From: Thermoanaerobaculia bacterium
Lineage (GTDB): Bacteria > Acidobacteriota > Thermoanaerobaculia > Multivoradales > UBA5704
Length of the DNA stretch: 64,000 bases
Assembly: GCA_044226625.1 (NCBI GenBank)
Contig: JBGAGQ010000032.1
Coordinates: 1 to 64,000, forward strand
Direction: 5' to 3'
Shown: positions 1,850 through 13,834 of the stretch, piece after piece
Numbering within the stretch: position 1 is the first letter of the stretch
How the letters are laid out: each line of letters begins with the position of its first letter
Position numbers and translations under genes: made by a program
Notes under the pieces: generated by a model
What the model was told of the DNA's origin: nothing
What the model saw: the letters and a program-made list of their open reading frames with translations, nothing else
Database searches by the model: none

Positions 1850-3784
<1,935 letters not shown>

Positions 3785-3872: not shown

Positions 3873-6323
3873 TCACTCGCGCCAGAGAGCGTCGCGCACC
3901 TCGATCGCGAGCGCCCGGCGGCCGGGCACCCAGGTCGCGGCGAGAACGATCGCCGAGACCGCCGCGGCCACCAGGAAGGCGACCCCGAGGGAGAGGCCGA
4001 ACGACACCGGGAAGAGGCGCGAAAAGGCGAAGCCGGCGAGGAGCGTCGCCGGCAGCGCGATCAGCGCGCCGACTCCGTACTGGCGGGCGCCCTGGCACAA
4101 GAGCATGCGGAGCACGTCCCGCTCCGAAGCGCCGAGCGCGCGCCGGACACCGATCTCCCGGCCGCGCCGGCCGATCGAGCGCGACATCAATCCGTACGTA
4201 CCGCTCGCGGCGAGCAGCAGCGCGAAGCCGAAGCAGAGACCGAGCAGCCCAGCGACCGAGCGCGCGAGCAAGGAGGTCTTTTCGAGCACCTCTTCGAAGC
4301 TCTGGACCGTCCCTGGCACCACCTGCGGATCGAGCGCTCCGAGCGTCCGGAAGAACGCCGTCTGCGCCGCCTGCCGGTCGCCGCGGTGGCGCAGCTCGAC
4401 CGAGGCGAAACCGGCCGCCGTCTGGGCGAGAGGGACGTAGACCGCGACCGCGCTCCGATCGCGCGACAGGGGATTGCCGAGAAGCACGTCGTCGACGACC
4501 CCGACGACCGTGCGCCACCGCGCTTCGGCGAGGCCCGAGAGGCGGATCCGCCGACCGAGTAGCGAGCCCTTCGGCCCGTAGCGGGCGGCGAACGACCGGC
4601 TCACCAGAGCGGCGCGCGCGTCGTTCTCGCGATCGCGCCCTTCGAAGAAGCGCCCTTCGACGAGGCCGAGACCGAGCGGCGCAAGGGAGCCCTGGATCGC
4701 CTGGACGAACGCTTTCGGCCGCGCGAGGGTGGGATCCTCCAGCTCCAGGGCTCCCTCCTCCGAGGAGATCTCGGCGAGCGGGGCCCGGAAGACGACGCCT
4801 TCGAGCTCCGGCCGGGCGGCGAGCCGGTCGTAGAGGGTTTCGAAGAACCGAGCGCGCGCGGCGGGATCGGGATAGCGATCGACGGGGGGCTCGACGGAGG
4901 AATCCAGGAGATTCCGCGTGTCGTAGCCGAGATCGACGTGGATCACGCGGTGCGCGATCACCCCCGACAGGCAGCCGACGAACATCAACACCGAAACCGT
5001 CGCCACCTGGCCCACGACGAGGATCCGGGCGACGCGACCTTCGCGCCGGTCGCCCGATTGCGCAGCGCCGTCTCGCAGCAGAGCGTTTACCTCGGTGCGA
5101 TTCGCGCGAAACGCGACCATGGATCCGAGTGCGGCGATCGCCAGGGTGACGAACGCCCCCGCCGCGACGACGACCGAGCGATCGAAGCCCCACACCCACC
5201 AGAAGGCGAGGTTGCCGGCGAGCCGTGCGCGGGCCCAACCGTTCAGCGCCTCGAGCGCGAGGCCGGACAAGACGGTCGCGAGCGCGCCTCCGGCGACGCA
5301 GAGGAGGGCGATCTCCCAGAGGCCTTGCAGGACCAGCCGCGACCGCGGCGCCCCGAGCGCCAACCGGACCGCGGTCTCCCGCGCCCGCTCGTTCGCCCGC
5401 GCGACGAGGAGATTCGTGACGTTCACGCAGGCGAGCAGGAGGATGAGACCCGCGACCGCGTTGAGCGCGGCGAGGACGACGGGGCCGACCTCGCCGATCT
5501 GGGCCATCGGAAACGTCTCGACCCGAAGGGCTACGGGCGCCTCGCTCTCGCGGTCGTCCGCCGAGGGGGGAGGCGCCGGAACCGGCTGCGCGCTCCGAAC
5601 CGCGAGCAGCTTCGCGGTGAGCTCGGCTTCGGCCGCGCGAGCGCTGGCTCCGGGCGCGAGACGCGCGAAGACCTCGACGGCCCGACGGTCCGGAGTCGTT
5701 TCGGCGAGGACCTCGGGGGGGATCGGAGCCCAGGCCTCGGAGGCCACGGGGAAGCCGTAGCCCGCGGGCATCACGCCGAGCACGCGGGTCGGGAGCCCGT
5801 CGAGCGTCACCCGGCTTCCGATCAAGCGTCGATCGCCGCCGAAGACGCTCCGAAACGTCGCGTCCGAAAGCACCACGCACTTCTCCGCGCCGGCCTCCTG
5901 GTCCTCCGGCCGGAAACCCCGCCCGAGCGAGGGTCGGGCGTGCGTCGCCTCGAAGACGTTCCATTCCGTCTCGGTCACCTGGATCGAGCGGGTTCCGTCT
6001 CCGGCCCCGACGATCCCTTCGCGGGAGGTATAGGCGCCGAGCGCCGCGAGGGTCGTGAGACCCGGCCGGATCGCCGCGAGGTCGGCGGCGTCGATCGCCC
6101 CCCAGCGGCCGTTCGAGACCGAGAGGATCTTCACCAGCTCCTCACCCCTCTCGACCGGCAGCGGCTTGAGCATCGCCGTGTAGAGGAACGAGAAGGTGAA
6201 GATCGCGACGCTCAGTCCCCCGGCGAGCACCGACACCGTGAGGAGCGACGAGATCGGGGTCTTCGCGAGCAGCCGGAGGGCGTGGCGGACGTCCTGGACG
6301 GAGAACCAATGCCTCGGATTCAT
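3873..6323 (-). CDS. ABC transporter permease, duplicated MacB/FtsX type (ADOP-like)
   Basis: Start reassigned to ATG 6323 (MNPRHWFSVQDVRHALRLLAKTP). LLLACVNVTNLL...RARETAVRLALGA and REIGVRRALGA give two FtsX repeats. Confidence 0.88.
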   Translation of the reverse strand: MNPRHWFSVQDVRHALRLLAKTPISSLLTVSVLAGGLSVAIFTFSFLYTAMLKPLPVERGEELVKILSVSNGRWGAIDAADLAAIRPGLTTLAALGAYTSREGIVGAGDGTRSIQVTETEWNVFEATHARPSLGRGFRPEDQEAGAEKCVVLSDATFRSVFGGDRRLIGSRVTLDGLPTRVLGVMPAGYGFPVASEAWAPIPPEVLAETTPDRRAVEVFARLAPGASARAAEAELTAKLLAVRSAQPVPAPPPSADDRESEAPVALRVETFPMAQIGEVGPVVLAALNAVAGLILLLACVNVTNLLVARANERARETAVRLALGAPRSRLVLQGLWEIALLCVAGGALATVLSGLALEALNGWARARLAGNLAFWWVWGFDRSVVVAAGAFVTLAIAALGSMVAFRANRTEVNALLRDGAAQSGDRREGRVARILVVGQVATVSVLMFVGCLSGVIAHRVIHVDLGYDTRNLLDSSVEPPVDRYPDPAARARFFETLYDRLAARPELEGVVFRAPLAEISSEEGALELEDPTLARPKAFVQAIQGSLAPLGLGLVEGRFFEGRDRENDARAALVSRSFAARYGPKGSLLGRRIRLSGLAEARWRTVVGVVDDVLLGNPLSRDRSAVAVYVPLAQTAAGFASVELRHRGDRQAAQTAFFRTLGALDPQVVPGTVQSFEEVLEKTSLLARSVAGLLGLCFGFALLLAASGTYGLMSRSIGRRGREIGVRRALGASERDVLRMLLCQGARQYGVGALIALPATLLAGFAFSRLFPVSFGLSLGVAFLVAAAVSAIVLAATWVPGRRALAIEVRDALWRE

Positions 6324-6495
6324 CGGCGCTTCTACGGCGCCGCCGGGGCGGATGTTTCGCCGCTCCCCGCGCTCGATCCACGGATCGTGCCGCCGGAGGT
6401 AACGCGCAGACGCAAACGTTCGCCAAATCTTTAAAGTAATGTCAATGCACCGAGCGCGGAGCGACCGCCGCGATCTCTCGAAAGGAGCCGGATCC

Positions 6496-8151
6496 ATGCC
6501 CAGCCGCAGGTCCACGCCGAAGAAGGTCTCCCGCAGATCCCCTCGTGCGGATCGTTCCAAGGCTCTCGAGGTCTCGGTCCGCCCCACCGGACCGAGCGTC
6601 GACGAGGTGGCGGCGCTCGAACAGCGCCTCACGTCGCACCGGCAGCTCGCGGAGTGGTTCCGCGGAAGCCGGTGCCGCCTCCTCTCGATTCGCTGGGAGG
6701 ACCCCGACGCTACGGGAAAGTCGGCGCGGCCGGCGCCGATCGACGAATTCGTCGCGACCTGGTACGACTACTCCCACCACCGGACGATCAACGCGCGCGG
6801 CCGCCTCTCCGACCTGCGGCGGCTGGAGGTGACGGCGAAAGGCGACCAGCCGCTCCCGAGCCCGGCGGAATTCGACGAAGCGTTGAGGATCCTGCTGCGC
6901 GACCCCGAGATCGGGCCTCGGCTCAAGGAACAGCGGGTCCGTCCCTATCCCCCCATGCCCCCGCTCCATTTGACAGAGCGTGAGGACGGTACCCGGGAGC
7001 GAGGCGTCACCGTCGGCCTGCTCGGTCCGGGGAGCGGCCCGAATCGAGAGCACGAGATCGTCGGGGTCAATCTCTCGTCCCGCGCGATTTCGCGTTTCGC
7101 CGAGCGGGCGCCCGCGACCGCGATCGCGAACTTCGGCACCTGCGGCCTGCCCCACGCGGTCCAGCCGACGGCGCGTAACGTACCCGGTCAGGCCTGGTTC
7201 ACCGTCAAGTACGGGGGCACCACGGTATGGAAGTTTCTCGCCGTGCGGCCGGCCGCCTCGTCCGGCACGAACGGTTCGGGCATCGAGCTCCGCTATGTCG
7301 ACTACAAAGGCGAGAGGGTGCTCTACCGCGCCCACGTGCCGATCCTGAACGTCAAATACGACGGCGATGCCTGTGGCCCGTATCGCGACTGGCAAAACGA
7401 AGAGAGCATGATCCAGGCGCCCGCGGGAAACGACGTCGCTCCCGGCTTCCGCATCTGCCCCACGCCGGCCAAGACGATTCTGGATACCGGCCTGGACACC
7501 GGCAATTTTCTCGGCGTCGGAGTCTACGTCGACGGTCTCGAGGTGGTCCTGGTGAGCGAGATGGAAGCCGGATGGTACCGGTACGTGAGCGAGTGGCGCC
7601 TTCACGTCGACGGCACGATCCGCCCGCGCTTCGGCTTCACCGCGGTCGACACCTCGTCCTGCGTGTGCAACGTGCACCATCATCATTGCTACTGGCGCCT
7701 CGATTTCGACATCGCGACCGCCGGCGGCAACCGCGTGCGCGAGTTCAATCGATTCCTCCTACAACGGGGAAAGTGGTCCACCCTGCCGTTCGAAACCGCG
7801 CGACCGCGCTCCCCCCTCTTCCACCGCAAATGGCGCGTGGAAAACGTCGCCACCGGCAAGGGCTACGAGATTCTGCCCGGGCCCACCGACGGCGTCGCGA
7901 CGCAATCTCCCGACTGGCCCTATCCCAAGGGGGATCTCTGGTTCGTCCGATACCGGTCGGATGAGATCGACGACGGCTCGGTCGCCACGGGCCCCCCCTA
8001 CGAAGCGGGGATCGACGGCTTCGTCAACCACGAGTCGATCGAGAACGCCGACGTCGTCGTTTGGTACGGGGCGCACTTCACCCACGACATCGACCACGAA
8101 GAGCCGGGCGAATTCGGCCACATCGTGGGACCCACGTTGCGATCGGTGTGA
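6496..8151 (+). CDS. Copper amine oxidase-like protein with a non-canonical cofactor motif
   Basis: AAAGGAG SD before ATG 6496. VLYRAHVPILNVKY, YRDW, GWYRYVSEWRLHVDGTIRP, HHHHCYWRLDFDI and ENADVVVWY...TH align by eye with the copper amine oxidase catalytic domain. Confidence 0.7.
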   Translation: MPSRRSTPKKVSRRSPRADRSKALEVSVRPTGPSVDEVAALEQRLTSHRQLAEWFRGSRCRLLSIRWEDPDATGKSARPAPIDEFVATWYDYSHHRTINARGRLSDLRRLEVTAKGDQPLPSPAEFDEALRILLRDPEIGPRLKEQRVRPYPPMPPLHLTEREDGTRERGVTVGLLGPGSGPNREHEIVGVNLSSRAISRFAERAPATAIANFGTCGLPHAVQPTARNVPGQAWFTVKYGGTTVWKFLAVRPAASSGTNGSGIELRYVDYKGERVLYRAHVPILNVKYDGDACGPYRDWQNEESMIQAPAGNDVAPGFRICPTPAKTILDTGLDTGNFLGVGVYVDGLEVVLVSEMEAGWYRYVSEWRLHVDGTIRPRFGFTAVDTSSCVCNVHHHHCYWRLDFDIATAGGNRVREFNRFLLQRGKWSTLPFETARPRSPLFHRKWRVENVATGKGYEILPGPTDGVATQSPDWPYPKGDLWFVRYRSDEIDDGSVATGPPYEAGIDGFVNHESIENADVVVWYGAHFTHDIDHEEPGEFGHIVGPTLRSV

Positions 8152-8190
8152 GAAGACCTCGCGCGATGCGAGGACGAGGGGAGCGGGCCG

Positions 8191-8796
8191 CTATCTCGGG
8201 CCCGCGTCTCCTCGCTTCGGGAAATCTCGATTCAGGGTCACGCGCCGCGCCTGTTCGAGATGACGTCGGGCATGACCGGCGAGGATCGCAAGACCGTCCC
8301 CCAGGGGGATGCGCAGGCGGCGGGAGATCGGCGAGCCGGTGGTCGAATACCCGAGGTCGAGGCCGTCGGCGCGCTGCAATAAACCAAGGAAATCCTGCTC
8401 GCGGTCGATGAATCGACGGTACGCGTCGGGGATCGGTCCCCTGATTCGGAGCAGCGGGGGCGCCGGGATGGGGATGCGAACCCTGGCGCCCGAAAGGGTG
8501 CGGAACAGCCGTCCGAGCCGGCTGCCGTTCCACGCTCCGCGTCGGATCGCGCCGGCGGCTCGCGTGCGATCGATCGCGCTGGCAAAGCGGGGGTGGAAGA
8601 GATCCGCGGCCTGAACCAGGTGCGTGAAGCACTCCGCCACCCCCCAACCGTTCCGGCTCGGGCGCCAGGCGAGCTGCTCCGGGGTGAGCTCGCGACAGAG
8701 CGCCTCGGCCTCCTCCGCGATCCTGGCCACCTCCCGCGCCAGACCGGCGAGGAAGGGGTCGAGGGGTAGCTTGGCGAAGGGAAGACTCGAATCCAT
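8191..8796 (-). CDS. DinB/YfiT-family protein
   Basis: LAWRPSRNGWGVAECFTHL and C-terminal HARRHLEQA His pattern; start taken at ATG 8796. Confidence 0.8.
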   Translation of the reverse strand: MDSSLPFAKLPLDPFLAGLAREVARIAEEAEALCRELTPEQLAWRPSRNGWGVAECFTHLVQAADLFHPRFASAIDRTRAAGAIRRGAWNGSRLGRLFRTLSGARVRIPIPAPPLLRIRGPIPDAYRRFIDREQDFLGLLQRADGLDLGYSTTGSPISRRLRIPLGDGLAILAGHARRHLEQARRVTLNRDFPKRGDAGPR

Positions 8797-8906: not shown

Positions 8907-9902
8907 ATGGAACCGAACCCCGTCGTCCTTCCCGAGCCTTCGATGCTCTTTGCCGGCATCTGCGCGGCCGCGTTTCGGGTGCGCGAGATCGCCCACCGCA
9001 CGGCCGTCGCAACCTCACGAGCGCTCGACGAACGAACCGGCGCCCGCGTCTTCTTGAAATGCGAGAACCACCAGCGCGTCGGCGCGTTCAAGATCCGCGG
9101 CGCCTGGAACGCGGTCTCGCAGCTCCGCCCTGAGGAGAAAGCGCGCGGCGTGCTCACGTTTTCCTCCGGCAACCACGCGCAGGGGATCGCGCTCGCCTGC
9201 CGCGAGCAAGGGGTCCGGGCGACCGTGGTGATGCCGACGATCGCGCCGGCGGCCAAGCGCGCCGCGACGGAAGGCTACGGCGCCGAGGTCATCCTCTACG
9301 ACCCGGACGAAACGGCGCGCGAGGAGCTCGCCTCGAAGCTCCAGGAGGAGCGCGGGTCGGTCGTGATCCCGCCGTACGACGACCTGCGGATCATCTGCGG
9401 CCAGGGCACCGCGGCGCTCGAGCTGTTCGATCAGGCGGGCAAGCTCGACCTCCTGCTCGTCCCCTGCGGCGGCGGTGGCCTCCTCTCCGGCTCCGCGCTC
9501 GCGGCCTTCGGCGTCGCCCCGACCTGCCGGGTGATCGGCGTGGAGCCCGAAGTCGCCGACGACGCCACGCGCTCGTTCCGTACCGGCATCCTGCAAACGG
9601 TGAAGAACCCGCCCACGATCGCCGACGGCACGCGCACCCCGTCGCTCGGCAAGCTGACCTTCCCGCTCGTCCGCGCTCACGTCTCGGACATGGCGACGGT
9701 TTCCGAGGCCGCAATCGCCGAGGCGGTGCGCTTCCTTTTCCACCGCACCAAGGAGGTCGTCGAGCCGTCCGGAGCGCTCGGCGTCGCCGCCCTGCTCTCC
9801 GGCGCGGTGACCCCGAAGCCGGGGGAACGGGTGGGGGTGATCCTCTCAGGAGGCAACGTCGACGGCGAGGTGATGGGGGAGATTCTCGCGGGAACGTTGT
9901 AG
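8907..9902 (+). CDS. PLP-dependent threonine/serine dehydratase family (serine racemase / threo-3-hydroxyaspartate ammonia-lyase-like)
   Basis: LKCENHQRVGAFKIRGA (PLP lysine), SSGNHAQG, PCGGGGL, VEPSGA and ILSGGN; no ACT domain. Confidence 0.9.
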   Translation: MEPNPVVLPEPSMLFAGICAAAFRVREIAHRTAVATSRALDERTGARVFLKCENHQRVGAFKIRGAWNAVSQLRPEEKARGVLTFSSGNHAQGIALACREQGVRATVVMPTIAPAAKRAATEGYGAEVILYDPDETAREELASKLQEERGSVVIPPYDDLRIICGQGTAALELFDQAGKLDLLLVPCGGGGLLSGSALAAFGVAPTCRVIGVEPEVADDATRSFRTGILQTVKNPPTIADGTRTPSLGKLTFPLVRAHVSDMATVSEAAIAEAVRFLFHRTKEVVEPSGALGVAALLSGAVTPKPGERVGVILSGGNVDGEVMGEILAGTL

Positions 9903-9974: not shown

Positions 9975-10967
9975 GTGAACCGCCATGACCCGTTGTTCAA
10001 AGATCTGTTCCGAGCGTTCTTCCGCGACCTGCTCCGCCTCGCGGATCCCGATCCCCGAGGCGTTTTCGCGAAGCGGCTCGGAAAAGCGGAGCTTCAATTC
10101 CTGGACAAGGAGGTCTTTCACTCCGAGGGTCGTCGCCACGAGGTCGACCTGCTCGTGGAGGTTCCTCCTCAAAGGGGTAGTCCGGCGTTTCTCGTCCACG
10201 TCGAAATCGAGCGTAGATTCCGAACCGATTTCGGCCGTCGCCTCGCCCGCTACTCTCGTCTGCTCCACCTGCGTCAAGACCAGCCGGTGGTCTCGATCGT
10301 AGTCTTCCTCCAGGGCGGGCCACCCGGTGCCTGCTGGATCGAGCGAAGCGAGCGCGTACTCGGAATGGAGATCGGGCGCCTTCGCTACCTTTGCCTAGGA
10401 CTGTCCGGTCTTCGAGCGAGTGAGTTGCTCGATCGCTCGGAGCCCCTCGCTTGGGCGCTCGCTTCCCTCGCCAATCCCGAGGAGATGGGACGCGTGCTCC
10501 TCAAGATAGAAATCCTTCGGAAGATTGCGAAGGCTACGATGGCCGAGGAAGAGCGATTCCAGTTGACCAACTGTGTCGAGACATATCTACAATTGACCGG
10601 GCAGGAGGCCAACGCGTTTTTCCAATTGCGCCAGGCACCGGGATATCAGGAGGTCGAAGCCATGCAAACGACATGGGCGGAGCGTATGGAGGCGCAGTAC
10701 ATGCGAAGGGGGATGGCGAAGGGCCTCAAGCAGGGCCTGGAACAGGGAATGGAGCAAGGCCTGGAGCAAGGCCTGGAGCAGGGCCTTCTGCGCGGCGCCA
10801 ACCGACTTCGCGCGACCCTTCTTCGGCAGATCGAGCAACGCTTCGGCGCAGTTCCACCGAACGTTACGAAGCGGATCGAGGCGATCGCCTCCCTGGATCA
10901 GCTCGCCGAGCTGGCGGACCGGATCCTGGAAGTCAGATCTCTCGAGGAGCTCGGCCTCGGAAAATAG
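9975..10967 (+). CDS. Rpn/YhgA-like PD-(D/E)XK nuclease with a DUF4351-like C-terminus
   Basis: HDPLFKDLF, VDLLVEV...VHVEIE, GLEQ repeats and LLRQIEQRFG...LDQLAELADRIL tail; AGGAGG SD before GTG. Confidence 0.85.
   Translation: MNRHDPLFKDLFRAFFRDLLRLADPDPRGVFAKRLGKAELQFLDKEVFHSEGRRHEVDLLVEVPPQRGSPAFLVHVEIERRFRTDFGRRLARYSRLLHLRQDQPVVSIVVFLQGGPPGACWIERSERVLGMEIGRLRYLCLGLSGLRASELLDRSEPLAWALASLANPEEMGRVLLKIEILRKIAKATMAEEERFQLTNCVETYLQLTGQEANAFFQLRQAPGYQEVEAMQTTWAERMEAQYMRRGMAKGLKQGLEQGMEQGLEQGLEQGLLRGANRLRATLLRQIEQRFGAVPPNVTKRIEAIASLDQLAELADRILEVRSLEELGLGK
10662..10967 (+). CDS. Putative internally initiated small Rpn protein (RpnS-like antitoxin)
   Basis: AGGAGG at 10648-10653, 8 nt before the in-frame ATG 10662 (MQTTWAERMEAQY...), just ahead of the repeat/C-terminal domain. 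Confidence 0.55.
   Translation: MQTTWAERMEAQYMRRGMAKGLKQGLEQGMEQGLEQGLEQGLLRGANRLRATLLRQIEQRFGAVPPNVTKRIEAIASLDQLAELADRILEVRSLEELGLGK
10722..10787 (+). repeat. Coding 12-bp tandem repeat (GLEQ, about 5.5 copies)
   Basis: ggcctcaagcag ggcctggaacag ggaatggagcaa ggcctggagcaa ggcctggagcag ggcctt. Confidence 0.9.
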
Positions 10968-11023: not shown

Positions 11024-13834
11024 CTAGAAGCTCACCCTCACCCCCAACCGGAACGAAGTCGGCGCGGTTCGTAGAACCGGTTTGCCGTAGCCTGAGTTCG
11101 TCGGTGTGGGCAGGGCGTTGTCCGATTCCTGGAAGCCCCAGCGCTGATCGAGCAGGATGGGCTTCTGGGCGTTCAGGGCGTTGAAGACGTCGAGGAGCAG
11201 GTTGATCGTCGCGGGGCCTGCTTTCACCGGATATCCGAAATGAAGGTCGGCTTCGCAGGTCCCGGGGGAACGACCCTCGGCGCCTCGTGGCGTGAGGAAG
11301 AACTCGTATCGGCCGTAGGCGTCGGAGTAGCCGTAGCGAGTGAGCGGCGTGCCCGATCGGTAATAGGCCGAGGCGCCGACCTGCAGCTTCCACGGCGTGA
11401 GGTAGAGGCCGGACACCTTGAGCTGATGCCGACGGTCGTTCGAAAGCGGCCCGTTGTTGGTGATCCGGGTTAGGTCGCTACCGTTGGTGAAGAAGTCGAA
11501 ATAGTCGTAGGCGGCCGAGATGTTCGGGTCGGCGCCGACGTTGGTGAACGGCGCGTATTCGCCGTCGAAATTTCCGTCGAGCTTCGAGTAGATGTAGGAG
11601 GCGAGCGCCTGCCAGTTCTTGGAGAAGCGCTTGGTCACGTCGACCTGGAGGCCCTTGTACTCCCGCTTCGGCTTGGGCGCCGGGAAGGTGCGCGAGTAGT
11701 CGAGGGTGAAGACCCGCTTGAAGAAGCCCTCGCCGGGGTTGCCGATGCAGTAGGTGCCGTCGTCGGCGCAGAGGAAATCCTCGATTACCCGGTCGTACTT
11801 GCGGAAGATGAGCTTCGCGCCGACCGCCACGTCGGGCATCACCTCGCGCTCGCCGCCGACGATCACCTCGGTGAGGTACTGCCCCTTGATGTTCGGATCC
11901 GACGGCTCGGTAAAGCCGCCGAGGATCGCCGAATCGGTCCCAAGGCTCGCCTCCGCGGCGGCGTCGGGCCGGATGTCGGTGGGCGAGAAGTTGACGATCC
12001 GGGGCTGACGCTCGAACGAGAACGAGCGGATCACCAGGTCCATCGGCAACTGCTCGTAGTAGCGACCATACGAGCCGAACACTTTGCTGCGATTGTCCGA
12101 GGTCGGGTCCCAGACGAAACCGAGGCGCGGCGCGTAATCGTCGGCGAGGTCGATCTGCTGCGTTCCCGCGGCGTCGATGATCTGCTGACGATCCCACCGA
12201 ACGCCCAGATTGAGCGTCAGGTTCGGGCGCACCGACCAGCCGTCCTGGAGGTAGAGCGTCGTGTTCTTGTGCTCGGGCGCGGCGGTGAGCTGCCCCAGCG
12301 GCGCGTTCGCCACCGTGGCGTCGGGCGTCGTCCAATAGTGGTGCACGTAGATCGGCCGGTTCGGGTTGTCGGGGTTCCGGAACACGTCGACCTGCTGGCC
12401 GCCCGACTGGCGGCGCACTACGTCCGCCTTCTCCTTCTCGTACTCGAGGCCCAGCTTCAGGTCGTGCCGTCCGAGGTAGCGCGCGACGGTCGCTCCGGCG
12501 TGGTCACGCTGGAACTCCTTGTCCTGGATCAGCCCGAAACCGCCGGTCTGGAAGAAGTTGTCCTCGACGTCGCGGAACTGCACGGTGTCGCCCGTCGCGG
12601 ACGCCGGACCGACCGAGTTCTTCTCCTCGTGCCGCGCGAGCTGGCCGGTGACGACCCAGTTCGAGGCGACGATCCCTTGGTAGCGCAGCGCGTAGTCCTT
12701 ACCCCCCAGCTCGATCCGGCCGGTGTAGGTCGCCGGGTCGCCGTTGAGCGAATGGGTGGAGTCGTTGATCGCCCCGGTGTCTTCGCGCGGATCTTGGAAG
12801 AAGCTGCCGATCAGCGACTGGCTCTCGGTCAGCCGGTAAGTGAGCTTCGCGGCTCCCAGGTCGCGGTCGGAGTCGGAATCGACCTGCTGGCCCGCGCGCG
12901 GGCCGGCCGGCAGCGAGCTCGTCAGGGTGTTGCTCACCTTGTCGTAGGCGGCAAAGAACCAGAGCTTGTCCTTCTTCAGGAATCCGCCGAGGCCGAGGCC
13001 GTAGTCCTGCCGGGAGAATCCTTCGACCGTGCCGCCGGTCGAAACCACCGGATCGGGGCTCGACTGGAGCGAATCGTTGTCGAGATAGCCGAACAGGTCG
13101 CCGTGAAACTCGTTGCCGCCGGACTTGGTGACGACGTTGATCACGCCGCCGGTCGAGCGGCCGAACTCGGCCTGGTAGCCGCCGGTCTTGACGTCGACCG
13201 CCTCGATGAACTCGAAGTTCAGCTCCTTGCCCTGGAACCCGTACTCGACCCCCGTGGTGTTGACGCCGTCGATGTAGAAGACGTTCTCGGCGCCGGAGGA
13301 GCCGTAGATCGAGATCGTCGTCTGCCCCTGGTTTTCCGGGTTCGCGTCGGAGGAGACGCCGGGGGTGATCTGGACCACGGACGAATAGTTGCGCGCGGTG
13401 GGCAGCGTTTGGATCGCCCGTACGTCGAGGTTCGAGCCGAGGGCGGTCGACGTGGCGTCGATCACCGGCGCCTCGCCGGTCACCGTGATCTGGTCCGAGG
13501 CGGTGACCCGGAGGGCGAAGTCGAGCGTGGTCCCCTTGTCGAGGCCGACGGACACGCCGGAGCGCGCGTCGGGCGCAAACCCTTCGAGGGTGGCGGTCAC
13601 GGCGTAGTTTCCCGGCGGCAGCAGGGTCAGACGGAAGTCGCCGTTGGCGTCGGCGACCGTCGTGCGGGTTCCCTGGAGCGACGGGCTCGAAGCCTCGACG
13701 GTCGTGCCGGGAAGCGGCGCGCCGCTTTCGTCGATGACCCGGCCGGAGATCGAGCCGGTCGTCTGGGCGGACAGGTTCGCGGCGGCCACCACGAGAAGGC
13801 CCGTGGCGATGCCGAGGAAACGAACGAACTTCAT
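11024..13834 (-). CDS. TonB-dependent receptor, Oar-like, with an N-terminal carboxypeptidase-regulatory-like domain
   Basis: Signal peptide; AQTTGSISGRVIDESGAPLPG; plug motif YQAEFGRSTGGVINVVTKSGGNEFHG; LTLNLGVRWD; C-terminal GVRVSF. Confidence 0.93.
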   Translation of the reverse strand: MKFVRFLGIATGLLVVAAANLSAQTTGSISGRVIDESGAPLPGTTVEASSPSLQGTRTTVADANGDFRLTLLPPGNYAVTATLEGFAPDARSGVSVGLDKGTTLDFALRVTASDQITVTGEAPVIDATSTALGSNLDVRAIQTLPTARNYSSVVQITPGVSSDANPENQGQTTISIYGSSGAENVFYIDGVNTTGVEYGFQGKELNFEFIEAVDVKTGGYQAEFGRSTGGVINVVTKSGGNEFHGDLFGYLDNDSLQSSPDPVVSTGGTVEGFSRQDYGLGLGGFLKKDKLWFFAAYDKVSNTLTSSLPAGPRAGQQVDSDSDRDLGAAKLTYRLTESQSLIGSFFQDPREDTGAINDSTHSLNGDPATYTGRIELGGKDYALRYQGIVASNWVVTGQLARHEEKNSVGPASATGDTVQFRDVEDNFFQTGGFGLIQDKEFQRDHAGATVARYLGRHDLKLGLEYEKEKADVVRRQSGGQQVDVFRNPDNPNRPIYVHHYWTTPDATVANAPLGQLTAAPEHKNTTLYLQDGWSVRPNLTLNLGVRWDRQQIIDAAGTQQIDLADDYAPRLGFVWDPTSDNRSKVFGSYGRYYEQLPMDLVIRSFSFERQPRIVNFSPTDIRPDAAAEASLGTDSAILGGFTEPSDPNIKGQYLTEVIVGGEREVMPDVAVGAKLIFRKYDRVIEDFLCADDGTYCIGNPGEGFFKRVFTLDYSRTFPAPKPKREYKGLQVDVTKRFSKNWQALASYIYSKLDGNFDGEYAPFTNVGADPNISAAYDYFDFFTNGSDLTRITNNGPLSNDRRHQLKVSGLYLTPWKLQVGASAYYRSGTPLTRYGYSDAYGRYEFFLTPRGAEGRSPGTCEADLHFGYPVKAGPATINLLLDVFNALNAQKPILLDQRWGFQESDNALPTPTNSGYGKPVLRTAPTSFRLGVRVSF

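Follow-up and report, generated by a model that had tools for sequence, protein, structure and literature searches.

Topaquinone (TPQ) enzymes are commonly recognised by the tetrapeptide N-Y-D/E-Y, which counts as their signature. In the phenylethylamine oxidase of Arthrobacter globiformis (AGAO; PDB 1av4/1avk), a copper amine oxidase (CuAO), Asn381 is the residue nearest to the TPQ ring and Tyr284 hydrogen-bonds O4 of the cofactor. As reported in PMC9491219, the N381A variant still forms TPQ, although 180-fold more slowly, its kcat is 160-fold lower and the ring flips. The flanking Asn is therefore replaceable without abolishing TPQ. Plant clade I (zeta) CuAOs are described in PMC12058724, which covers plants and animals only, as lacking the T/S-X-X-N-Y-D motif and as having no known function. 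Here we analysed a 64,000-nucleotide stretch of a Thermoanaerobaculia bacterium genome (GenBank GCA_044226625.1, contig JBGAGQ010000032.1; hereafter the window), in which the plus-strand gene at positions 6496-8151 encodes a CuAO-superfamily protein with W-Y-R-Y in place of the consensus. Like the plant proteins it has lost the consensus, but on the description given in that source they are set apart: they are eukaryotic and the motif is wholly absent from them, whereas the window clade has a different yet invariant motif around a conserved Tyr.

Residue counts given below refer to a family alignment (A1) of 91 rows with 31-58% identity to the query. It was obtained from a 99-row alignment of the query and those 98 of 150 listed representatives that have 480-700 residues, from which eight rows with a partial match or a match in two stretches were dropped (P0138, P0160, P0190, P0214, P0229, P0249, P0251 and P0264). 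Equivalences to AGAO were taken from a hidden Markov model (HMM) alignment in the numbering of AGAO itself, and the alignment to the E. coli amine oxidase TynA agrees with them. The Tyr at the position of the TPQ precursor, Y361 (AGAO Y382), is invariant, as are R362 on D383 and Y363 on Y384 (91/91 each), and W360, on N381, is present in 90 rows. The protein lacks the N-Y-D/E-Y consensus and has a precursor Tyr at the TPQ position. Because the consensus is not matched at the sequence level, we do not file the protein as an ordinary EC 1.4.3.21 enzyme.

The metal site was compared in the same way. H394 aligns with the copper ligand H431 (82/91) and H396 with H433 (91/91), and the third ligand is matched by H530. 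The Tyr equivalent to AGAO Y284, Y288, is found in all but two rows, and R401, aligned to the Arg of the AGAO R-L-D motif, is invariant. Thus, in these alignments, Y361 corresponds to the TPQ tyrosine and the three His to the copper ligands of AGAO, and the window protein carries the complete ligand set. H397 is an extra conserved His (82/91, with Asn in the other nine), and H527 is an additional, less conserved one (77/91). H395 is variable, with His in only 26 rows. In 7 of the 99 representatives Arg at position 394 occurs together with Arg, Lys, Gln or Phe at position 530, and an eighth row combines Q394 with L530. This joint replacement fits a location of H394 and H530 in one metal site. 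In the ligand-losing rows W-Y-R-Y, H396 and H527 persist, while H397 is Asn in two of them. A second metal site built from H397 and H527 was considered and found no support, since the two residues do not covary.

The relationship to CuAOs is remote when single sequences are compared. The Pfam model PF01179 matched with 39.2 bits (cut-off 27; E 5.3e-10) over residues 443-531 only, and a phmmer search of the PDB with the single sequence gave nothing significant (best E 0.22). The A1 profile retrieved AGAO from the PDB sequences at E 4.6e-14. When A1 was aligned by hhalign to 23 canonical actinomycete CuAOs (A2), the probability was 99.7 and the E-value 6.7e-26 over 496 columns, and a global alignment to 25 canonical CuAOs plus E. 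coli TynA reached 7e-38 over 511 columns, covering query residues 19-551. An AlphaFold2 (AF2) model built on A1 had a mean predicted local distance difference test (pLDDT) score of 94.3 and a predicted TM-score (pTM) of 0.93. All 39 rows listed by Foldseek for this model were CuAOs (best E 1.1e-18, TM 0.60/0.54), and VIA-align superposed it on AGAO with a Z-score of 27.6 and a root-mean-square deviation of 4.0 A over 442 aligned residues, pairing model residues 31-551 with AGAO 13-614. These full-length matches indicate that the window protein, as modelled, is a full-length member of the CuAO superfamily that keeps the whole D2-D3-D4 architecture. Within the N-terminal part, the A1 profile matches AGAO residues 37-188 and E125 and R169 are invariant, while paralogues consisting of D4 only match model positions 224-543.

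With 551 residues the protein is shorter than AGAO chains (620-646 residues) and the TynA precursor (757 residues). The difference in length comes from the missing D1 domain and from seven loop deletions relative to AGAO: six lie in the catalytic domain (6-14 residues each) and one, of 7 residues, just ahead of it. The initial annotation had proposed, from the sequence, a short CuAO homologue in which the Tyr and His ligands are kept and both residues flanking the Tyr are changed. Every motif it quoted is present at its position, and the family search, the fold and the alignment to AGAO agree with this proposal, as does the conservation of W360, Y361 and Y363. Its view that the protein represents a poorly characterised subfamily also held: PDB sequence searches found no solved structure for the W-Y-R-Y clade, no dedicated Pfam or NCBIfam model was found for it (NCBIfam matches were far below threshold), and a literature search, with subscription journals and supplements outside its scope, returned no paper on a W-Y-R-Y or W-Y-E-Y CuAO-like protein. 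Matches in the ESM Atlas were to CuAO-labelled or hypothetical clusters only. The coordinates of all features are collected in Table 1.

Table 1. Position of the gene, its motifs and the related or neighbouring features. Coordinates are those of the window unless a locus (L) is named.
Feature	Coordinates	Strand	Basis or remark
Coding sequence, CuAO-superfamily protein of the W-Y-R-Y clade, no signal peptide	6496..8151	+	Translation, homology, AF2 model
Shine-Dalgarno-like AGGAG	6483..6487	+	8 nt before ATG 6496; read from sequence
N-terminal region, about residues 24-205, like the small alpha/beta domains D2/D3 of CuAOs	6565..7110	+	Boundaries approximate
Catalytic beta-sandwich domain, D4-like, about residues 225-551	7168..8148	+	PF01179, hhalign, D4-only paralogues
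C216, putative partner of C391	7141..7143	+	Co-loss in 99 sequences
Y288, equivalent of AGAO Y284	7357..7359	+	All alignments agree; 89/91
C293, putative partner of C389	7372..7374	+	Co-loss in 99 sequences
Y296-R297-D298, candidate for AGAO Y296-F297-D298 (gate Tyr and catalytic base)	7381..7389	+	D298 89/91
E303, invariant acid, alternative candidate general base	7402..7404	+	91/91
W360-Y361-R362-Y363, replacing the N-Y-D/E-Y TPQ consensus	7573..7584	+	Aligned to AGAO N381-Y382-D383-Y384
Codon of Y361	7576..7578	+	
C389-x-C391, directly ahead of the His strand	7660..7668	+	C389 82/91, C391 86/91
H394-H395-H396-H397	7675..7686	+	H394/H396 aligned to copper ligands H431/H433
H530 (FTH-D), third copper ligand by alignment, AGAO H592	8083..8085	+	HMM alignment, 82/91
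Acetyl-CoA synthetase-like	1850..3784	-	Pfam; 5' side
MacB/FtsX-type permease	3873..6323	-	Pfam; 5' side
DinB_2	8191..8796	-	Pfam; 3' side
PALP pyridoxal-phosphate enzyme	8907..9902	+	Pfam; 3' side
DUF4351	9975..10967	+	Pfam; further 3'
CarboxypepD_reg/TonB-dependent receptor-like protein	11024..13834	-	Pfam; further 3'
Galactose/glyoxal-oxidase-like genes, plus strand	L013:3051-4856, L057:8980-12555, L074:8623-10770, L067:9919-12537	+	
Galactose/glyoxal-oxidase-like genes, minus strand	L041:4760-5650, L022:6442-6843	-	
Long members with surface-type C-terminal domains (P0230, P0240, P0257, P0258, P0260, P0220, P0254, P0198)			
ORF with five CxxCH haem-binding motifs	L126:2873-5614	+	
Split W-Y-R-Y pair, contig C45	L126:5641-7477	+	
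Secreted repeat protein, FG-GAP/VCBS-like by eye	L126: about 7570-8337	+	

A homologue search in which 8000 candidates were scored returned 2087 proteins at E <= 1e-3. Counted as clusters at 50% identity, the family comprises 1177 at E <= 1e-3, 304 of them at E <= 1e-30. The best 120 homologues are 58-82% identical to the window protein, 471-574 residues long, and named either 'hypothetical protein' or 'Copper amine oxidase, enzyme domain'. The closest one with a source name, P0002 (80% identity), is labelled Thermoanaerobaculia bacterium. A pattern scan using one genome per species gave at least 592 confirmed loci, of which 80 were retained. These stem from Acidobacteriota, Actinomycetota, Alpha-, Beta- and Gammaproteobacteria, Myxococcaceae, Bacteroidota, Bacillota, Armatimonadota, Chloroflexota, Nitrospira and one Nitrososphaerales archaeon. 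Among sampled Acidobacteriota a match at E <= 1e-20 was found in 14/301 genomes and 12/185 genera, counting among them the genome of the window itself and an unpublished one (G179) that enters no other result. Judged by these comparisons, the window protein belongs to a distinct, large and widespread clade defined by W-Y-R-Y, whose members occur in secreted, surface-anchored, split two-gene and leaderless forms.

We also searched 151 actinomycete genomes with PF01179. Matches were found in 39 of them, 30 at canonical strength (E ~1e-104 to 1e-168), eight in an intermediate band (1e-32 to 1e-43) and one, the seed genome with the window family, at 2.4e-5. In the window genome and five other carrier genomes the family member is the sole PF01179 match. 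The model also matched Deinococcus radiodurans and Sulfolobus acidocaldarius among 14 control genomes.

In our view the window protein is most likely an amine oxidase of the Cu/TPQ type whose cofactor pocket is remodelled, an assignment that we hold at somewhat better than even chances. In such an enzyme Y361 would be self-processed by Cu(II) and O2 to a TPQ-type quinone, and the usual ping-pong mechanism through a Schiff base would turn a primary amine into an aldehyde, releasing NH3 and H2O2. The putative general base is D298 (or E303). The pocket would be remodelled by Trp in place of the quinone-packing Asn, by an invariant Arg in place of the acid after the Tyr, by Arg297 and Trp299 flanking the putative base and by H397 added after the second copper ligand. 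Given the behaviour of AGAO N381A, a Trp at the N381 site together with the invariant Arg would be expected to alter ring dynamics and pocket electrostatics without necessarily preventing quinone formation. We infer that the remodelling reflects a different substrate range and/or different cofactor dynamics and not a loss of function. The initial annotation had likewise supposed an altered cofactor chemistry or substrate. Because of the extra Arg residues R297 and R362, one may speculate that the substrates carry an anionic group. The recurrent adjacency to genes for galactose-oxidase-like enzymes, described below, was counted for the amine-oxidase assignment since it fits a sequence from amine to aldehyde to acid.

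Several observations weigh against a Cu/TPQ-type amine oxidase. Both residues flanking the Tyr, which are part of the TPQ consensus, are changed in the alignment. The subclade of 7/99 representatives is probably copper-less and yet keeps W-Y-R-Y. Because two copper ligands were lost there and the motif was retained, W-Y-R-Y may serve something besides Cu-dependent quinone formation. An amine-catabolic role finds no backing in the 80 loci, where neither an aldehyde dehydrogenase nor an amine transporter nor any other such gene is a conserved neighbour. The window protein has no leader and still has the four Cys that are read below as disulfides. Finally, direct hhalign alignments (three settings and a further run) set AGAO D298 on Q307 with a confidence of 3-5 of 9. 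The residues found there differ (Q in 26, E in 13 and D in 12 of 91 rows), and the protein may thus lack the classical base.

The initial annotation had named the Asp of the YRDW motif as the base. Its conservation stands, as D298 is 98% conserved and the preceding R297 is found in 90/91, but its role is less settled, with the alignments split between D298 and Q307. In the direct hhalign alignment P-Y-R-D-W falls on P-S-R-Y-W of the first canonical sequence, again with a confidence of 3-5 of 9, and E303 lies on the strand 302-307 that is equated with the base-bearing segment. For D298 speaks a three-family MAFFT alignment including the intermediate group, which pairs Y296-R297-D298 with Y296-F297-D298 of AGAO. 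A transitive hhalign alignment gave the same pairing, with high confidence for the step from the intermediate to the canonical sequences and only 1-3 for that from the family to the intermediate sequences. By our own count this pairing is also more parsimonious in gaps, a net difference of 7 residues being reached by -4 and -3 versus +2, +3 and -12. In addition, a short helix begins 9 residues before the Asp in both AF2 models, the pLDDT of the canonical model being only 66-74 there. Weighing these observations together, D298 is the more probable candidate for the general base, with E303 as the alternative.

The changed motif could also belong to a copper-tyrosine enzyme without TPQ, in which Y361 would remain unmodified or be modified otherwise, as a Cu ligand or radical site, and which would act on a non-amine substrate, or on an amine by another route. 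We regard this as a tentative option, clearly less probable than TPQ chemistry. It would account for the fact that both consensus flanks are replaced by residues that are themselves invariant, and that a bulky Trp takes the place of the Asn guiding the TPQ ring, where, according to PMC9491219, the Ala substitution alone costs 180-fold in biogenesis. The possibly variable base position and the recurrent neighbourhood of galactose-oxidase-like radical copper oxidases point the same way. However, the residues that TPQ self-processing is known to require are all present (Y361, the His triad and Y288), and near the base position an acid, D298 or E303, is strictly or almost strictly conserved. Other residue-derived cofactors were considered as well. 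The lysine tyrosylquinone (LTQ) of lysyl oxidase and the cysteine tryptophylquinone (CTQ) of LodA/GoxA carry out oxidative deamination by a residue-derived quinone, and these enzymes are possible functional analogues with unrelated folds. An LTQ-like cofactor is unlikely, as no Lys is conserved at >= 85% and the fold is that of a CuAO. A CTQ or otherwise Cys-cross-linked cofactor, as in LodA or in the Cys-Tyr of galactose oxidase, was rejected because 5/99 representatives without any of the four Cys keep W-Y-R-Y and the His residues, so that such a cross-link is not family-wide. At the level of the clade, it is likewise possible, if doubtful, that another Tyr- or Trp/Tyr-based cofactor, or the turnover of a non-amine substrate, relies on the scaffold of CuAOs, their copper site of three His and the invariant Trp-Tyr-Arg-Tyr cluster. 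Such an enzyme would be extracellular in many soil bacteria and sometimes in tandem with a galactose-oxidase-like oxidase.

That the protein is a dehydrogenase, of the quinoprotein or copper type, with a protein and not O2 as its electron acceptor seems improbable to us. It was suggested by an ORF with five CxxCH motifs that precedes a secreted split pair of the family elsewhere in the window genome. The split pairs of two further genomes are not accompanied by this ORF, the window gene has no such neighbour, and canonical CuAOs use O2. Nor did this cytochrome turn up among the neighbour clusters that recur in the 80 loci, where no search was aimed at haem-binding motifs. If anything slightly more improbable is a non-catalytic relic or binding protein on the CuAO fold. 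The operon context is not conserved, the protein has no leader though many relatives are secreted, and some relatives have lost two copper ligands, all of which such a relic would explain. On the other hand, conservation is highest at catalytic positions (Y361, H396 and R401 invariant; H394, H530, D298 and Y288 at >= 90%), the window protein has the complete set, and all 120 close homologues are leaderless too, arguing for a stable, selected form.

Whichever chemistry applies, W-Y-R-Y is fixed across a clade of at least about 2000 sequence clusters, with soil Acidobacteriota among its carriers, while the copper site is kept. If TPQ forms, self-processing would follow less strict rules than assumed, and a new class of substrates would be likely. 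If TPQ does not form, the CuAO fold would support a second chemistry, and with it a new catalytic type in a fold thought to be limited to a single one. Extracellular members could, speculatively, matter for the release of nitrogen from organic amines in soil.

With AGAO the window protein shares the D2-D3-D4 fold, the TPQ Tyr and the following Tyr, the three His ligands, the R-L-D motif on its strand and a counterpart of Y284. It differs in having W-Y-R-Y where AGAO has N-Y-D-Y, and the two are only ~15-20% identical. Relative to AGAO, the window clade adds H397, H527, R297, W299, E303 and four conserved Cys, besides the seven loop deletions. When the family was aligned by hhalign to E. coli TynA (ECAO) alone, the match covered only the latter half of the catalytic domain (probability 95, E 3.9e-8, 193 columns), a segment in which GNYDY is aligned to GWYRY and which also covers HxH and the third His. 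Unlike the window protein, ECAO is made with a signal peptide and carries D1 as an additional N-terminal domain, and its gene lies in the feaB/feaR/paa phenylethylamine locus, a context that the window gene does not have.

Along with canonical bacterial CuAOs, the closest relatives include an actinomycete group with W-Y-E-Y, represented by loci L118-L125 in the eight genomes of the intermediate PF01179 band (8/151; G141, G096, G033, G116, G070, G093, G125 and G085). It shares the Trp in place of the consensus Asn and aligns to the W-Y-R-Y family at E 1.6e-27 over 281 columns. In contrast to the window family, it keeps the acid after the Tyr and has a clear Y-x-D-x-x-D/E-Y base motif, which aligns confidently to canonical sequences. 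In both groups a polar residue comes after H-x-H, Asn in the W-Y-E-Y group and His, or Asn in 9/91 members, in the window clade. In the same whole-genome search, the window family matched PF01179 at ~1e-5, far from the values of the W-Y-E-Y group. In these alignments the W-Y-E-Y group appears sister-like and bridges the canonical and W-Y-R-Y forms.

The initial annotation had placed extra His and Cys residues around the metal site. For H397, C389 and C391 conservation was confirmed, while H395 and C398 (Cys in 9/91 only) are not conserved. The conserved Cys do not appear to be metal-site residues. In the 99 representatives all four Cys are present in 88, none in five, C216 and C391 only in four, and other patterns in two. 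Because the conserved Cys are lost in pairs, this suggests that C216-C391 and C293-C389 form two disulfides and are not metal ligands. The pairing is only suggestive, since the D4-only paralogue of the same genome breaks the pattern: it keeps the equivalents of C216 and C389 and has no C391. Incomplete Cys sets were found in 10/47 leaderless and 1/52 leader-bearing rows (Fisher p = 0.003; the sequences are related and hence not independent). Roles of the Cys as metal ligands or cross-link partners were ruled out by the co-loss pattern and by this tie to leaderless forms.

The absence of a signal peptide, also noted initially, applies to the window protein and to its 120 closest homologues, none of which has a leader; these proteins start with a short basic hydrophilic tail. 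It does not apply to the family, as 53/91 members have an N-terminal hydrophobic segment. Leaderlessness thus appears to be a trait of the subclade and not of the family. Moreover, 8/10 long relatives scanned carry C-terminal P_proprotein, fn3, DUF11, Big_12, BACON or FlgD_ig domains. From the leaders and these surface-type domains it follows that the family is largely extracellular and that the Cys are most simply read as disulfides. In the window protein the four Cys most likely form two structural disulfides, a legacy of the relatives that are secreted and make up most of the family. The window protein itself is probably located in the cytoplasm.

The ORF at 6496-8151 is intact and translates into 551 residues and a stop codon. 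The start at ATG 6496 is supported by the Shine-Dalgarno-like sequence ahead of it. Use of an alternative in-frame ATG at 6439 would extend the N-terminus by 19 hydrophilic residues. Simple scans of positions 6100-8500 for a sigma-70 promoter and a terminator found none. The neighbouring genes between 1850 and 13834 have unrelated functions, and as the upstream neighbour is divergent and the downstream neighbour convergent, the gene stands alone. It is a real, intact gene encoding a single-chain leaderless protein.

A second W-Y-R-Y locus lies on contig C45 of the window genome. Here the family member is split into two back-to-back ORFs encoding a 245-residue D2/D3-like and a 364-residue D4-only protein, both with hydrophobic, signal-peptide-like N-termini. 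The D4-only ORF carries AGWYRY and H-R-H-H. The pair was missed by PF01179 and detected by the A1 family profile. An equivalent split pair is present in two further genomes of the class (L127 and L128). A secreted repeat protein is encoded next to the C45 pair, and neither this protein nor the CxxCH ORF is conserved beside the pairs in L127 and L128.

To compare neighbourhoods, 3235 ORFs from the 80 loci were clustered. With the family itself and overlapping frames excluded, the best clusters were ABC ATPases (7/80), galactose-oxidase-like proteins (6/80) and Gmad2 proteins (5/80). In these six loci, which come from four phyla, the family gene is followed directly by a gene for a galactose/glyoxal-oxidase-like copper radical oxidase, on the same strand in four of the six; at least 2.5 kb of downstream sequence was present in 60 of the 80 loci. 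Three of the six were identified by Pfam (PF09118 with Kelch or Glyoxal_oxid_N) and the other three by sequence similarity. Given glyoxal oxidase activity, such a tandem would fit the conversion of an amine via the aldehyde to the acid. A PF09118 search of the window genome gave no match, which is uninformative as the control genomes were equally silent. The Gmad2 cluster consists of small Ig-like domain proteins encoded directly upstream (L033, L044, L049, L059 and L076), four of them in Rubrobacter/Rubrobacteraceae and one in an unclassified actinomycetotal genome.

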